From: a virus
Lineage: Duplodnaviria > Caudoviricetes
IMG/VR virus record: IMGVR_UViG_3300038391_000041
Span: 1-37,507 of that record
Strand: one strand, 5' to 3'
DNA: 37,507 nt
Of the stretch, positions 19,641 through 37,507 are shown one piece after another. Positions within the stretch are counted from its first letter, which is position 1, and each line of letters starts with the position of its first letter. The position numbers were made by a program, and so were the translations under genes. The notes beneath the pieces are model-generated. The model had not been told where the DNA came from. It was given only the letters and a program-made list of their open reading frames with translations, and did no database searches.

Positions 19641-20873
19641 ATGTGGAACCCGTTCAAAAGAAATAGCAAGGAGGAAGGAGCTGGCCCTCAAGCGAAAGCC
19701 AGCCCAAAGTCAAAAGCTGTCAAGGTTGTTGCAGATCTCGACCGCTTGAATGAAGACAGGCTCAGAAAAGAGCTTGATGACTGGACTTATGCCAGAGATG
19801 TCAGACTGGATGTCCACAGGCCACAGACCTACCTGCTCCAGGAGCTCTACAATGATGCTCTTGTTGACTCTCATTTGATGTCTGCAATCCAGTCCAGGAT
19901 ATTGAGGATTGTCAACAAGAAGTTTGTCATCTTGAATGACAAAGAAGTCAATGAAGATAAAACCAAGTTCATTGAAGCTCCTTGGTTTAGGGATATGCTA
20001 AGGCACTGGATGTGGAGCATCTTCAGAGGATACAATCTCATTTATGTCAAAGAGTCTACTCCAGGAAGGATCATCAGTGTGGATGTGGTACCCAATAGCC
20101 ATATCATCCCTGAAAGAAGGGTCATCATCAAAAATGTAACGGACACAGATGGAGGCCTGCCTTTTGACAAGCTGGATGGTCAGATGCTTTATGCTCAAGC
20201 TTATGATGCTATTGGGCTCCTCAACACAGCTGCTCCATATACCATCCTAAAAAGACACAGCTGGGCCTCCTGGGACAACTTTGAGCAGCTCTTTGGAGTG
20301 CCCATCAGAGTTGGGAAGGTGATCAACAGCTTTGATGGGAAGAGAATGAGGGAAATGCATTCAGATCTTGAGAATATGGGCCAGAGCCCTGTTGTAACTA
20401 TGCAGCAAGGAGAAGAGATTGAGATCATCCACTCCAATCAGACAGATGCATTCAAGGTATTCCAGGAGAAGATCAAGCTTGTCAATGAAGAGGTCAGCAA
20501 ATTGATCAACGGACAGACAATGACAGCTGACAACGGAAGCTCTAAGTCTCAAGCTGAAGTCCACCAAATGACTCAAGATGAAATCACCAGGGCAGATGAA
20601 AAGGAGATTCTGGACTGGCTTAATGAGCAGCTCAAGCCATTGATGGTAAAATATGGATACTCGTTGACTGATGCTGATGTTTTTGGAATCCATACTTCAG
20701 AGGATCCAAAAGAGTCCATTGACATTGACTTCAAACTCTCTCAAGCCGGATACAACTTGAGCCCTGAGTACATTGAGAAAAAGTATGGTGTCGAGTTGGA
20801 CAAGGATCAACCCACTAAGACTCCAGATAATGAGCCTAGCAACCTGAAAGCGCTTTTTGATTTTTTCGACTAA
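19641..20873 (+). CDS. Portal protein (Mu gp29 / DUF935)
   Basis: DSHLMSAIQSR, WDNFEQLFGVPIRVGK, EVSKLINGQTMTADNGSSKSQAEVH. Confidence 0.93.
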   Translation: MWNPFKRNSKEEGAGPQAKASPKSKAVKVVADLDRLNEDRLRKELDDWTYARDVRLDVHRPQTYLLQELYNDALVDSHLMSAIQSRILRIVNKKFVILNDKEVNEDKTKFIEAPWFRDMLRHWMWSIFRGYNLIYVKESTPGRIISVDVVPNSHIIPERRVIIKNVTDTDGGLPFDKLDGQMLYAQAYDAIGLLNTAAPYTILKRHSWASWDNFEQLFGVPIRVGKVINSFDGKRMREMHSDLENMGQSPVVTMQQGEEIEIIHSNQTDAFKVFQEKIKLVNEEVSKLINGQTMTADNGSSKSQAEVHQMTQDEITRADEKEILDWLNEQLKPLMVKYGYSLTDADVFGIHTSEDPKESIDIDFKLSQAGYNLSPEYIEKKYGVELDKDQPTKTPDNEPSNLKALFDFFD

Positions 20874-20892
20874 GCCCCAGCTCGGTTGGGGC
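20861..20892 (+). promoter_or_regulatory. Predicted -1 ribosomal frameshift signal linking portal to MuF
   Basis: T TTT TTC (20861-20867), 6-nt spacer, hairpin GCCCCAGC-TCG-GTTGGGGC (20874-20892); the -1 frame is open from 20861 into MuF. Confidence 0.7.
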
Positions 20893-21001
20893 ATCAACTA
20901 GAATCTTTTACTCTCCTTTTGTCAAAGCCCTTGGAGGCAAGTTTCCTTGGGCAGACTATCAAGATGCCATCAAGAAGATAGTCCCAAAGGTTAAAAAAGG
21001 C

Positions 21002-22147
21002 ATGAGATCATTTCACAAGAACCAGGACCAACTATCTCCTGGATTGTTTGAGGCCAATTTTGATCCTCTAGTTGAAGCCTCCGGAATAAATCTGAAGTAC
21101 AACTATGGGCCTAACATGGTTTTTGATCACATGATGAGTCAGAACCTGGGCCACTTTGCAGCCAGGAAGACCCTAGCTCAGCAAGCTGCTTTAACCAGAG
21201 CTTTATTTGACCAGGATGGCAAGCTCAGACCCTTTGTGGAGTTTGAGAAAGAAGCCAAGCCAGTCCTCAAGGATTATAACCGGAATTGGCTAGCAGCTGA
21301 ATACAATACCACCACCAGATCTGCAAGGATGGCCACAGACTGGAGAACAGCACAAGAGGAGAAGGATCTGTTCCCAAACATCAAATACCTTCCTTCAAGA
21401 TCTGCAACTCCTAGAGAAGCCCACAAGCCTTACTATCACATTATCCGGCCAGTTGATGATCCATTCTGGGACACCCACCTTCCACCTAACGGCTGGCAGT
21501 GCCTTTGTGGATTTAAGACCACTGATGAAGAGGTCACTGACATTCCTGAAGATCTGGAGCCTCCAGAGTTTGGCTTCAGGCAAAATGTGGGAAAGACAGC
21601 CAAGCCCTTTGACAACTCACATCCCTATTTTTCTCAAAGGTATCCAGAGAGAAGAAAGCTCATGGCTGAGATGATGGAATCCATGCCTTACAACATAGAT
21701 GTTGATGGTGTGAAGGTGAGCCTTTGGGCAGATCCTTCAGACCTGGAGAGCAATCTGCAAGCAGCTCAGATATTTAAGGAGAGCTTTGATGATGTCCGGA
21801 TCATGCCTCACCATTTTGATGGCAGGAAAAATCCAGAGTATCTGATTGACCAGGTGCAAGGTGATCTGGTAGTTGCCCAGGGATCCACAATCAAGGGCTC
21901 ATTAAACAATGCACTCAGAAGGAAATACCAGCAGATGAGTGGCAAGTTTTACCTGGTGTTTAATGTGAATGCGTTAGCACTACCTGGAGAAGAGATCCTG
22001 GCAAGAGAGATCTATGGATCACTGAAGCAGAGAAGACGGTGCAACAAGCTGATCATGGTTATGGATGAGAGCTTGTATGTTGTGGTTGATCAAGGGATGA
22101 ACCTGGAGGAGATCCAGGAAGCAATTAAAACAGCAAGAGGCAACTGA
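21002..22147 (+). CDS. MuF (SPP1 gp7-like) head protein with C-terminal CdiA-like nuclease domain; frame open upstream to 20861
   Basis: YNRNWLAAEYN, REAH, RPVDDPFWDTHLPPNGWQCLC, FRQNVGKT, HPYF; C-terminus ESNLQAAQIF..VRIMP..KNPEYLIDQVQGD..K..LVFNV. Confidence 0.88.
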   Translation: MRSFHKNQDQLSPGLFEANFDPLVEASGINLKYNYGPNMVFDHMMSQNLGHFAARKTLAQQAALTRALFDQDGKLRPFVEFEKEAKPVLKDYNRNWLAAEYNTTTRSARMATDWRTAQEEKDLFPNIKYLPSRSATPREAHKPYYHIIRPVDDPFWDTHLPPNGWQCLCGFKTTDEEVTDIPEDLEPPEFGFRQNVGKTAKPFDNSHPYFSQRYPERRKLMAEMMESMPYNIDVDGVKVSLWADPSDLESNLQAAQIFKESFDDVRIMPHHFDGRKNPEYLIDQVQGDLVVAQGSTIKGSLNNALRRKYQQMSGKFYLVFNVNALALPGEEILAREIYGSLKQRRRCNKLIMVMDESLYVVVDQGMNLEEIQEAIKTARGN

Positions 22148-22192
22148 TGAAGCTGCCTCTTGAGAGGTCGGGGCCTGTAGCTCCAACCGGGT
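22125..22192 (-). ncRNA. Candidate small antisense RNA (~65-70 nt) downstream of the MuF toxin domain
   Basis: Minus-strand TATCTTTG -7 element at 22204-22197; hairpin 22188-22166; terminator-like hairpin 22162-22134 followed by CTGTTTT. Confidence 0.45.
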
Positions 22193-22208
22193 AGTACAAA
22201 GATACAAA

Positions 22209-22700
22209 ATGAGTAGCAAACTATCAGAGGACCTAGAAAAGCTCCAGAGAGATCTGAAGAAGGCTATATCATCGGAGATCCCAAGGAGAGCAGGTAAGGC
22301 CGGAGTTGACTACTTCAGAGAGTCTTTTGTCACTGAGAGTTTTGATGGTGTAAAATGGCCAGCTGTCAAAAGGAGAGATCCTGGGAGTAAGTGGTACGGC
22401 TTTCAGTATAAAGGCAAAGGCAGTCCAAGATTTTCAGCTGCTGCAACCAGGAGAAGAGTGCTGACTGGATCCACCGGTGAGCTTGGAGATTCCATCAACT
22501 ACATAGTCAGACCTTTTGCCACCATCTTCAGGAGTGACAAGCCCTATGCTAAAGTGCATAATGAGGGCTTGATGGCCAAGGTCTTTGGGAAGCACCCATT
22601 CAAAATGAAGAAGAGGCAATTCATGGGTCCTGCAAAACAGCTAGACAAGAAAGTTGACAAGATTGTTGATGATGCTATTGATAGGGCTTTTACCCGATAA
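22209..22700 (+). CDS. Virion morphogenesis protein (Mu gpG / P2 gpS-like)
   Basis: ESFDGVKWPAVK, LTGSTGELGDSI, PYAKVHNEG, KRQFMG. Confidence 0.85.
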   Translation: MSSKLSEDLEKLQRDLKKAISSEIPRRAGKAGVDYFRESFVTESFDGVKWPAVKRRDPGSKWYGFQYKGKGSPRFSAAATRRRVLTGSTGELGDSINYIVRPFATIFRSDKPYAKVHNEGLMAKVFGKHPFKMKKRQFMGPAKQLDKKVDKIVDDAIDRAFTR

Positions 22701-33883: not shown

Positions 33884-36800
33884 TGGGCGATGGAGGAATT
33901 GATCCACGAAGCCGACTCCAACGGAAGGGCCAACACAAAATACCGAGGTGTTAAACCCATTGTGGCAGACAGCATCGGTCCGGATTTATTCCGGTTGAGG
34001 GAATCGGGTAGGGGAGGTGGAATAGAAACCTTTGATATGAACCGGGGTCGAAAGTATTCGGCCGCAGTGGATTTCATTGATTCCAATAATTACTGGGACA
34101 ATTACAACGCGGATCTGGACGAAGTGGCCGGTGATGCGCACTTCGGTGCGGAGCAGACCTACGACTACTTCAAGTCGAAATTCAATCGAAACAGCTTTGA
34201 TGACAACGGAGCCAAGATCAGAAGCTTTATTCACTACGGGAACAACTACGTGAATGCTTTTTGGAATGGCTTTGTGATGACTTACGGTGACGGAAACGGC
34301 AAAGGCATTACTCCATTGACCACCGTGGATATTTGCGGTCACGAAATTGCCCACGCAGTGACCACCTACAGTGCAGGGCTGATCTACAGAAACGAAAGCG
34401 GTGCGCTCAATGAGTCCTTTTCAGACATCTTTGGAAATGCCATCGAGTGGTTTGCTGATTCCACCCAATTCAGTTGGAGAATGGGAGAGGATATCATGGC
34501 CTCTAAGAATGGAATCCGAAATATGGCCAACCCCAAAACGCATCGGGATCCTCATACCTACAAAGGCCAGTATTGGTACTCAGGCACGGGAGATAACGGT
34601 GGGGTTCACACCAATAGCGGAGTTCAAAACTATTGGTTCTACCTGTTGTGTGAAGGTAAAACGGGGACAAACGACAACAACGACAATTACCAGGTGGATA
34701 GCATCGGAATCCACAAAGCGGAACAAATAGCCTATCGGAATTTAACTGTTTACCTGACCAATTCATCCGATTACGAGGAGGCACGGTACTATGGAATCCA
34801 GTCGGCCGGCGACTTGTACGGTTACTGTTCCAAAGAATTGGAAGCTACCACCAATGCCTGGTATGCCGTGGGAGTGGGACAACCGTACGATAGCAGCGCA
34901 GTCAGTGCCGATTTCACGGCAGATAGCCTTTACTGTCAGGGCAACGAAACAGTGCGGTTTGTCAACCGATCTCTAAATGCCAAATCATTCGTCTGGTCCT
35001 TTGGAGATGGCGACACGTCTCATGCGGTCCATCCCACTCACGAGTATGGCCAGCAAGGATCCTTTACCGTTTCCCTTGCGGTTGAAAGTTGCTATAATGG
35101 TTTTCAGGACACCTTGGTTCGAACCCAATTCATTACCATCGATTCCACGCGCGACATCTGCTCCGGTATCTTAATGCCGTACGCCACCTGGGATACCGTT
35201 CGTGCTTGTTCCGGTTTTGTTTATGACCACGCAGGGGAATCGAATTACACCGGATTGCACCGGGATACACTCACCATCGATTTTGCCACGAGCGATTCCG
35301 CTTTGCTTACCTTCCTGGAATTCGATTACGAAACCAATTACGATTCGGTTTATGTTTACGACGGCTATAGTCCCTCGTCGGGCAACCTGATCGGTGGATT
35401 TACCGGCACGTACTTACCCAATAATGGAAATGCGATCAGCCTTTACTCCGGCGCTGTTACCTTGGTCCACTTTTCAGACCCCTTTGTGGTAGGTACTGGA
35501 TTTAAAGCCCGGTTTGAAGCTAAAAGGCCGGCACTTTCTCTCACTCACTCACCGGATACTACAGCCTGCTTTGGGACTGAAGTCCATTTGTCCATGAAGG
35601 GCAGTGGAGGAGACCCTGCGGACCATTATTATTCATGGAATAGTATGGAATTCTCTGATTCCATTAGTTTCATTGCTCAACAAGATACATCGTTTGAAAT
35701 CACATTTGGCGACCTATGCATGCGCGAGTTTGTCACAGATTCAATTCATCTGGAAGTACTGGATCCGATCACGTTCTCTCAAAGTGGAAATCCCACCCTG
35801 TGTCAGGGGCAGTCAACAATAATCTGGCTCAATCCAAGAGGTGGAAAAGGAGTGTATGATTTTACCTATTCTGATGGCGGAGGTGCCGTTGGTAGAAAGA
35901 GCATCACTCGGCAATTGAATGGTCTCCTGCCGGGTGAGCACCCGTTTTGGGTGTCCTTCACAGATCAGTGTACTCCCGGTCCGGATACCGCTTTTTATAC
36001 CATCCGGGTGAGGGATTCACTGAGTTTAAGTCTCAACTCAGACACCACTATTTGTATGGGTACCACATTGGACTTGCAGGCATTTGCAGAAGGTGGAAAC
36101 GGAAATTATTCCTTTGTTTGGGATGATGGTACTTCCGGGAGTAGCAGGGTGGTGAGGCCCGGTTCGAACCAAAGCTACGCGGTCACATTGAAGGACGGGT
36201 GCAGTCGGTTCGAACCAAAAGCAAGCCTGAATGTAACGGTACTGGATTCACTGAAAATTGAAATATCAAGCCCCGATTTGGTGTGTTATGGAGAAACAAC
36301 CACCTTAACGGCCACAGTGACCGGTGGTTTGGAAAAAGACCGCATTGTACGTTGGGCAAATTACAAGGTGCAGGGACTTACTTTGACAAAAGAAATACGT
36401 GAAGAAGAGGAGTTCATTGCTACAGTAGAAGACGGGTGTTCCGTGGATGCAGCAACGGCTAGCGCGCTGGTTTTGGTTCGAACCAAACTATCCCTTAAAG
36501 CTTCTGCAGACCAAACAGTTTGCGACTACGATACGTCTACTCTCTCAGTGGTGCCTGCAGGAGGCATTTCCGAAAACTACCGGGTAACGTGGAACCAGGG
36601 TTTGCCGGATGGCTTATCGCATGAGGTCTCGCCGTCATTTACCACGGTGTACCTCGCTACGTTGAGAGATGGATGCAGCGACAGTGCAACGGCTATTATT
36701 ACCATTGAAGTTCACGACTTTGCCATACCGGATTTTGAGGTCGATCCGGAAGATGTTTGCCTGGGAGATACAATCAAACTATCCAATACAGGAGACACCG

Positions 36801-37507
36801 GGCCGGGGTACTCCCATGCGTGGGATGTTACAGGACAAACCGGACTCACCGGAGCCGATGTTCAGTATGCCTCGAATTCTGCGGGGGTGTTTGATGTAGA
36901 ATTGAAAACCACCACTCCGGAAGGTTGTATTTATATTCTGGAAAAACAGAATGCTGTGGAAGTATGGGAAAATCCGAGGTCGTATTTTGAATTTGATTTC
37001 GACACCATACGATACACGAATCAGCGCGTTCAAACCAGAAACCGTTCTTCTTTTGGACGAGATTATACCTGGCTGGTGGGGGATGAATTTTACAGCTCAG
37101 AAAGTGAGCCGTTGATGGAATTTGATTACACCGGAATCAACTATGCCAATCGAACTGTACCGGTGACCTTGATCGCGATGAACGAAATCGGTTGCTCGGA
37201 TACCCTCTCAAAACCACTTACTATTTTAGGAACTTCCAACGTTTTTCAGGCCAATGCCTTTACTCCGGATGGGGACGGATTAAACGACGATTTCGGTTTG
37301 ATCCACTCCAACTTCGAGGAATTGGAATTTTGGATCACAAACCGACTGGGAGTGATCGTATTCCAATCGGAGAGCAAGGATGACCGCTGGGATGGTACGA
37401 CCAAAGGTAAATTGGTTCAGCCCGGGTTATACAACCTGTTCATACGCGGTACGGATCTTTACGGAAACCCGGTGGAGGAACAGTCAACGGTTCTGGTGGT
37501 TTACTAG
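33884..37507 (+). pseudogene. Host M4 (thermolysin-family) metalloprotease with PKD, CUB and T9SS type-B C-terminal domain; 5' part separated by the prophage
   Basis: NAFWNG, HEIAH, GALNESFSD, DNGGVHTNSG; PKD WSFGDG; CUB ETNYDSVYVYDG; NAFTPDGDGLND CTD. No signal peptide or propeptide; the frame starts at the phage end. Confidence 0.85.

Follow-up and report, generated by a model that had tools for sequence, protein, structure and literature searches.

What protects a lysogen from a virion-borne nuclease toxin when no immunity gene lies beside the toxin gene? The question is raised by the virus record IMGVR_UViG_3300038391_000041 (positions 1 to 37,507; the whole stretch of 37,507 nucleotides (nt) was analysed and is here called the window), a provirus of a Mu-like transposable phage. 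In it a MuF gene with a C-terminal toxin-like extension (20861..22147, plus strand) is followed by a neck gene that starts 61 nt past its stop, with no immunity open reading frame (ORF) between the two. On the minus strand, the gap and the end of the toxin gene carry a predicted small RNA of about 66 nt (22127..22192, both of its ends likewise predictions) that contains no AUG-started ORF. Comparison with related MuF phages makes it very probable that such a reverse-strand RNA unit is real and conserved at the level of the family, and probable that it serves as immunity. That the copy in the window is itself a 66-nt RNA immunity gene, which would bind or decoy the predicted tRNA-cleaving tip of the MuF protein, is the reading that we favour, albeit with less assurance.

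Position and architecture of the unit in MuF phages

The unit in the window has the layout of a promoter followed by two hairpins. Its -7 element, TATCTTTG (22197..22204, minus strand), occupies a slot shared with relatives and fits the consensus TAnnTTTG, which the available part of PMC7366714 gives for Bacteroides promoters together with TTTG as the -33 element. The -33-like word TCTG, matching TTTG at three of four positions, lies 20 nt away within the neck gene (22225..22228, minus strand), and both words stand where the first-pass annotation had placed them. The predicted RNA opens with a 23-nt 5′ hairpin (22166..22188, minus strand; GGUUGG-A-GCU-ACA-GGC-C-CCGACC), the candidate toxin-binding element, which can be read as five base pairs (bp), a 2x2 loop (GA/CC), three bp and the triloop ACA. 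It closes with a predicted intrinsic terminator recognized by a terminator scan (22127..22162, minus strand). The annotated succession of two hairpins and CUGUUUU (22133-22127) is present, the terminator stem (22162-22134) being scanned at 12 pairs rather than 11, and the strand asymmetry claimed for that stem was also seen, with G-U on the minus strand where the plus strand has A-C. The toxin stop TGA (22145-22147) falls inside the terminator loop; the RNA runs over the final 21 nt or so of the reading frame, this stop among them (22127-22147), in agreement with the annotated overlap with the last toxin codons, plus 45 nt of spacer. Both strands of the 70-nt unit fold well, the minus strand at -30.7 kcal/mol (z -4.86) and the plus strand at -27.7 kcal/mol (z -3.52), in each case with 0/200 shuffles as stable.

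The window unit rises above chance because its position and architecture are conserved in relatives. A search with the tip domain recovered 28 viral loci with 15 distinct downstream sequences of about 6 independent types, and CAAAnnTA, the -7 element as it appears on the plus strand, was present 54-78 nt past the stop in 28/28 of them; in the window it lies at 49. We also drew a sample blind to the toxin, fetching 80 loci by MuF alignment, of which 4 incomplete ones were dropped and duplicates collapsed to leave 49 unique loci. Here reverse CAAAnnTA occurred 40-95 nt past the stop behind 24/25 RNase-type tips, RNase-type being our own grouping, which Pfam supports (CdiA_C, LPD3) for some members and not for others and from which L259 was shifted by hand to the papain-like group. 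The motif was present in that interval in 0/17 papain-like, 0/4 L231-type, 0/2 short and 0/1 broken MuFs, and it followed other ORFs at the same distance in 3/264 cases. The downstream motif for which the first-pass annotation had proposed to survey MuF toxin loci is found behind RNase-type tips. Among promoters of the relatives, the -33 CAAA word peaks at a spacing of 19 nt (16/77).

The loci without a motif at this distance use the same slot for something else. All 21 papain-like and L231-type loci carry the reverse motif 226-260 nt past the MuF stop, 16-35 nt before a minus-strand ORF of 72-85 residues that converges on the toxin gene (for L256 and L276 the longest ORF reported by our script began at a further Met and runs through this same ORF). 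The papain-like tips are PF15644 in the two tested, and the three slot ORFs tested gave no Pfam match. Because of their position, these ORFs are likely to encode the proteins that give immunity to tips of the papain-fold and L231 types, and the proposal that the window carries a minus-strand promoter-hairpin-terminator unit in an immunity slot gains support from finding them under the same promoter motif. Such ORFs, probably unannotated, were seen in L246, L252, L266, L294 and further papain-fold loci and in L231, L232, L234 and L262; the L231-type ORF bears a CxxCxH...C motif. On a tree of the 49 MuF domains the RNA or ORF state requires 10 changes, 8 of which well-supported branches impose, and MuFs that are nearly the same can carry different cargo (L284 versus L266 and L275; L254 and L277 versus L257). 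The cargo therefore appears to move together with the toxin tip. The window clusters with L241 on this tree, by a long-branch join.

Loop types by toxin family and the mode of action

The 5′ hairpins differ by toxin family. A GC/AA 2x2 internal loop closed by pairs occurs in 15/22 CdiA-type units found through their proteins, against 0.5 expected and 0 on the plus strand, in 0/9 units of other PD-(D/E)xK tips and in 0/7 RelE-like units. A search of DNA alone for this core loop together with the promoter found 115 loci, 35 of them with short flanks; 61/115 lie directly behind a CdiA-type gene, and a strict-core version of the search placed 55/62 loci there. In 40 unique units the 3-bp stem around the core is paired on the minus strand in 120/120 cells, with 23 G-U and 0 A-C, a count in which the search pattern had already set one partner of the inner pair. 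The outer two pairs are paired in 80/80 cells, versus 33, 54 and 46 of 80 in slid controls. Covarying stems, which the first-pass annotation had proposed to look for, were likewise recovered, RNAalifold on 30 of the 40 units giving 13 pairs, 9 of them with double changes.

LPD3 tips are accompanied by another loop. From 80 loci fetched for this tip, 3 incomplete ones were dropped, and the reverse promoter was present in 75 of the remaining 77. The 21 unique units all have a stem with a 7-nt UU-G(C/U)A-NN loop, strictly YUGCARN in 16, whose geometry is that of the Cys and Tyr anticodon arms of host-type tRNAs. Because the partner RNA loop resembles these arms, LPD3 is predicted to be an anticodon nuclease that cuts Cys and Tyr anticodon loops. 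Loops reading UUGCAGU or UUGUAGU follow the tip in L237, L264, L277, L284 and L524-L603.

RNA units also occur detached from their toxin genes or in more than one copy. They stand as orphans behind unrelated genes (L123, L163, L191), beside a different toxin and that toxin's own ORF (L184), or behind broken toxin genes (L125, L136), L125 having two different tips in tandem; such units have presumably been relocated, or have outlasted a toxin that was lost or broken. Two promoter-hairpin-terminator units follow one another at L025:1973-2106, and in L584 and L586 two anticodon-like hairpins lie within one unit. By analogy, these detached and tandem RNAs resemble orphan immunity genes.

The first-pass annotation had offered two modes of action, an RNA that binds or decoys the nuclease and an RNA that silences its mRNA. 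The second would be a type I-like antisense RNA acting in cis, base-pairing with the 3′-terminal part of the MuF-toxin message and the spacer between the MuF and neck genes to make leaky late transcripts decay. The window RNA is fully complementary to that transcript by position, overlaps the frame as far in as described above and has a promoter and terminator of its own, all of which would suit such a role. Pairing by complementarity, however, would work with any sequence, and yet the loops show conservation that is specific to the toxin family; the slot holds an ORF for other toxin classes; units persist away from the toxin gene; and the RNA is nearly all self-paired. We consider antisense action unlikely. 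Binding or decoying is favoured over silencing because the loops are toxin-family-specific and the units may be orphan or tandem, features that a protein-binding decoy needs and a cis-antisense RNA does not.

In the mechanism that we propose for a binding or decoy RNA, the toxin would be made as a portal-MuF-nuclease fusion by -1 frameshifting, packaged, and delivered at infection; packaging and toxicity on delivery have been proposed for MuF toxins in the part of PMC5576092 available to us. In the lysogen, the reverse-facing promoter of host type would make the hairpin RNA independently of the late operon. Its 5′ hairpin would be the part that contacts the toxin, the 3′ hairpin serving only to end and stabilize the RNA. 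By binding the predicted tRNase on the MuF tip, or acting as its decoy substrate, the RNA would shield the producing cell, and lysogens, from incoming sibling virions.

The window copy, its tip and its strand

The C-terminal part of the window MuF protein (21686..22144, plus strand) is a CdiA_C-like PD-(D/E)xK domain and a predicted tRNase, as judged by a fold match and by profiles of its homologues. Its predicted model (mean predicted local distance difference test score (pLDDT) 87) matches PDB 4G6V at Z 10.6, with a root-mean-square deviation of 3.3 over 122 aligned residues and a runner-up at Z 7.2. Foldseek pairs it with the same structure at E 8e-4, sequence identity being merely 12-15%. 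4G6V is the CdiA-CT of Burkholderia pseudomallei 1026b, which according to the accessible part of PMC9086364 cleaves tRNA-Ala in the acceptor stem and uses E187, D214, D223 and K242. The last 153 residues of the window protein match no Pfam family, PF18451 (CdiA_C) included, at E 0.1; PF18451 is matched by 9/9 aligned homologues of the tip. A search of the PDB by sequence with the tip profile returned nothing useful. The family of CdiA-type domains comprises 493 clusters at 50% identity. No close relative of the window protein was found, one search returning solely the window's own protein; other relatives are one match at 34% and 23 metagenome loci at 27-58% best-segment identity. Related proteins occur in gut Bacteroides prophages.

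Whether the window copy still works depends first on its active site. Alignment and spacing point to E51 (21836-21838), D60 (21863-21865) and K80 (21923-21925, all plus strand) as candidate catalytic residues. The Lys of the family DxK, present in 148/150 of the best family representatives, is Val in the window (21869-21871, plus strand) and in P0139, and a Gln retained in 145/149 representatives is changed; because of these two losses the tip may be inactive. A plain loss of the catalytic Lys was our earlier view of this site and has been revised, since the spacing of K80 and its invariance within a clade fit an alternative Lys. A Lys 20 residues past the Asp is invariant in the five-member variant clade to which the window belongs, and E51/D60/K80 are spaced +9, +20, compared, by sequence only, with +9, +19 for D214/D223/K242 of 1026b. 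The window enzyme may thus be either a variant that is still active or a product of decay.

Several observations weigh against the reading of this locus as an RNA immunity gene, beginning with the substituted DxK Lys and the changed Gln. The window hairpin lacks the GC/AA motif (C-GC-G...C-AA-G), the covariance model R1 of the main subfamily misses the window unit at E <= 10, and no close relative of the window RNA was found, the 119 loci that share its specific loop pattern including none near MuF or CdiA. L249 has a 174-residue tip and no unit. The case for LPD3 as an RNase is built on weak fold matches: the top 7 for its predicted model are all BECR RNases, colicins E5 and D among them, at Z 4.2-4.7, and Foldseek gave no match at E <= 0.001. 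For the orphan RNAs, the toxin profile found no match in five fragmentary records that bear them, and the cognate toxin may lie elsewhere because these records are fragments, 10-69% complete. Likeness to tRNA exceeds chance in only 2/74 strand tests (L254 minus and L036 plus, each at 4/300 shuffles), and in the window it is at chance level (123 and 291 of 300 shuffles).

General mimicry of tRNA sequence was rejected on these grounds, the comparison set being 77 distinct tRNA sequences taken from the genomes of two Bacteroidota, as was the likeness of the window plus strand to the 5′ end of tRNA-Pro (123/300). At L254:4514-4602 (minus strand) a T-arm-like GGAGGUUCGAAUCC was noted in the RNA unit, which aligns to tRNA-Ser above chance (4/300 shuffles); ARAGORN called no tRNA there. 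In a run on 15 loci ARAGORN called 0 genes.

The window copy might instead be a decayed relic of a real family system, an inactive nuclease beside a drifted RNA that is kept as terminator or spacer. The altered DxK and Gln, the missing PF18451 match, the hairpin that lacks GC/AA and escapes R1, and a related tip (L249) that exists without a unit would all be expected of a relic. The reading frame is intact, however, as are the promoter, both hairpins and the terminator; the spacing of E51, D60 and K80 stays near that of the 1026b site with K80 invariant in its clade; and the clade members L242 and L253 retain the canonical unit. The dimensions of the window hairpin, moreover, are those of L241 (GGUUC-GA-GGU-ACU-GCC-GA-GAACC), with 5 bp, a 2x2 loop, 3 bp and a triloop; with the main GC/AA subfamily it has only hairpin dimensions and layout in common. 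A relic is in our judgement distinctly unlikely. Decayed-looking MuF tips do occur in L249, L267 and L043, where the spacer is zero and the stop abuts the neck gene, which suggests that the RNA is lost after the toxin has died.

A different possibility is that the conserved element acts on the plus strand, within the late mRNA, marking a place between the toxin and neck genes where the message is processed or attenuated, or one where the nuclease trims its own message. The plus strand of the window does fold well, as given above, and in 8/40 relatives it is the more stable of the two. Pairing and tails point the other way: in 35 unique terminators G-U outnumbers A-C by 27 to 3, and the terminator is succeeded by a U-rich tail in 31/35 on the minus strand and 3/35 on the plus strand, so that with the core stems the G-U/A-C asymmetry amounts to 50 to 3 and that of the U-tracts to 31 to 3. 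The minus strand is favoured because of these G-U pairs and U-tracts, and the bipartite promoter and the slot ORFs are on the minus strand too. A plus-strand element is accordingly improbable.

Nor do we expect the minus transcript of the RNA immunity unit to encode an immunity peptide, a possibility that we regard as highly improbable. The minus frame 22019-22309 is open, the longest non-AUG ORF being a UUG-started frame of 55 residues that enters the toxin gene, and the slot carries protein cargo in other phages; translation of this frame would demand read-through of the 12-pair terminator, and the frame is not conserved across 65 units. Because spacer lengths are spread evenly modulo 3 (20/22/23) and an ATG ORF of at least 40 residues is present in merely 7/65 units, the units are read as non-coding. 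A chance meeting of octamer and inverted repeat between two genes, which would suit an octamer no commoner in the window than expected (17 observed versus 23.5, uninformative taken singly) and a 5′ hairpin that is weak by itself (z -1.93, 7/200 shuffles), is hardly credible and largely refuted at family level by the 24/25 against 3/264, the covarying stems and the class-specific presence of the unit.

A further TAnnTTTG, at 21635-21642 (minus strand), falls within the MuF gene close to where the tip begins, and is at chance level. Rfam gave no match at the window unit at E <= 10, and in 17 related loci none of the units had a match that reached the gathering score. An RT-3 Rfam RNA was seen near the MuF module, outside the unit, at L119:2493-2640 (plus strand, 127.8 bits).

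Phage context, known systems and meaning

The window encodes a transposase and a repressor, followed on the plus strand by terminase, gp36, portal, MuF and neck genes. We infer a Bacteroidota host because relatives sit in Bacteroides vicugnae, Chryseobacterium and Paludibacter. The Mu-type portal gene (19641..20873, plus strand; PF06074, E 3e-70) precedes the MuF gene, whose open frame is -1 relative to that of the portal, has its first ATG at 21002 and matches PF04233 at E 1.8e-7; the adjoining neck or virion morphogenesis gene occupies 22209..22700 (plus strand; phrog_26, E 8e-16). At the portal/MuF overlap (20861..20892, plus strand) a predicted -1 frameshift signal consists of the slippery heptamer T TTT TTC (20861-20867), the portal stop (20871-20873) and a hairpin (20874-20892). 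A MuF frame at -1 relative to an overlapping portal frame was seen in 46/47 two-frame loci, the window included, 44 with a slippery heptamer (T TTT TTC or A-runs); seven further loci (L001, L009, L036, L231, L232, L234, L262) have in-frame portal-MuF fusions. The overlap is thus likely to be a programmed -1 frameshift that yields a portal-MuF-toxin fusion, and the portal-anchored toxin of the first-pass annotation is made more plausible by this conserved layout. Past the repressor, an ORF of 1205 residues (33890-37507, plus strand) has no PHROG match and is possibly host DNA at the prophage edge.

Among known systems, the type I antitoxins share with this unit an antisense RNA that overlaps the toxin mRNA and converges on its 3′ end. 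Type I toxins are mostly small membrane peptides, and their convergent antisense overlaps are long; here, by comparison, it is loops lying beyond the coding sequence that are conserved, toxin family by toxin family. AbiF is a HEPN-type defence nuclease paired with a dedicated structured RNA antitoxin, and is not a virion-borne polymorphic toxin. We know of no swap between RNA and protein cargo for AbiF.

The likeness to type III systems (ToxIN, CptIN, TenpIN, AbiQ), put forward in the first-pass annotation, is that of an endoribonuclease, in the window a predicted one, which, as proposed here, would be neutralized by a small non-coding RNA. The resemblance does not extend to gene layout. As described in the available part of PMC5086642, the type III antitoxin lies upstream in the same operon, separated from the toxin by a terminator, and consists of pseudoknotted tandem repeats cut by the toxin. 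Here a single short unit, of 66 nt in a 49-nt spacer, lies on the other strand past the toxin gene and has its own promoter, a few relatives having two hairpins or units, and the toxin is the PD-(D/E)xK tip of a virion protein, with unrelated folds sharing the slot. The CdiA-CT/CdiI pair of B. pseudomallei 1026b (4G6V, PF18451) has the same fold and similar catalytic spacing; its toxin relies on two-partner secretion for delivery and has a protein inhibitor, CdiI (PMC9086364, as far as available), whereas the window domain would be blocked by RNA. The DUF3800-I to XI, drum and skipping-rope motifs, which the accessible text of PMC5737381 describes as diverse structured RNAs that finish in a terminator and are associated, on either strand, with a single protein domain encoded nearby, have a different protein partner and offer a descriptive parallel only.

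MuF polymorphic toxins with protein immunity are the subject of PMC5576092 and PMC12226406, and the available portions of these papers treat no RNA immunity; the window differs from the toxins described there in having no immunity ORF and a reverse-facing slot with an RNA. In PMC5576092 the words "Bacteroidetes" and "frameshift" occur 0 times, as do antisense, promoter and noncoding in PMC5512222, and the available part of the hankyphage paper PMC12135933 contains nothing relevant. A literature search whose scope left aside supplements and most subscription papers found no description of RNA immunity for MuF or polyvalent nucleases; the supplementary motif tables of PMC5737381, also outside that search, could bear on novelty.

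Reverse units may extend beyond Bacteroidota-type phages. Where MuF loci lack the Bacteroidota motif, a sigma70-like site in reverse orientation follows 15/18 RNase-like tips, 2/19 short MuFs and 3/9 other long ones, against 4, 1 and 1 for forward controls in the same three groups; the result is only a lead because the groups were drawn by eye after the sequences had been viewed. Among phages not of the Bacteroidota type, L046, L056, L072, L076, L077, L081, L094, L105, L107, L109 and L110 have MuF proteins that end in PBECR2, MuF_C or similar tips, and combine structured spacers with sigma70-like sites facing in reverse; L081, L094 and L110 have in common a GAGAATAT(C/T)ACCGT-like word. We regard it as an evenly balanced question whether there is a general class, hitherto undescribed, of tiny reverse-strand substrate-decoy RNAs that serve as immunity genes in temperate phages across phyla. 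Each would be matched to one virion-delivered RNase family (PD-(D/E)xK, LPD3, PBECR2, MuF_C), swapped as a cassette with the tip, interchangeable with protein immunity in the same slot, and kept as an orphan for broader protection.

In the literature that we compared, accounts of immunity to polymorphic toxins concern proteins, and an RNA in the slot would, if true, differ from it. It would explain MuF nuclease toxins that have no immunity ORF, and would carry the principle of the RNA antitoxin beyond type III defence operons, to competition toxins borne by virions. If true, it would also mean that the target of a toxin can be read from its partner RNA, as exemplified by LPD3.

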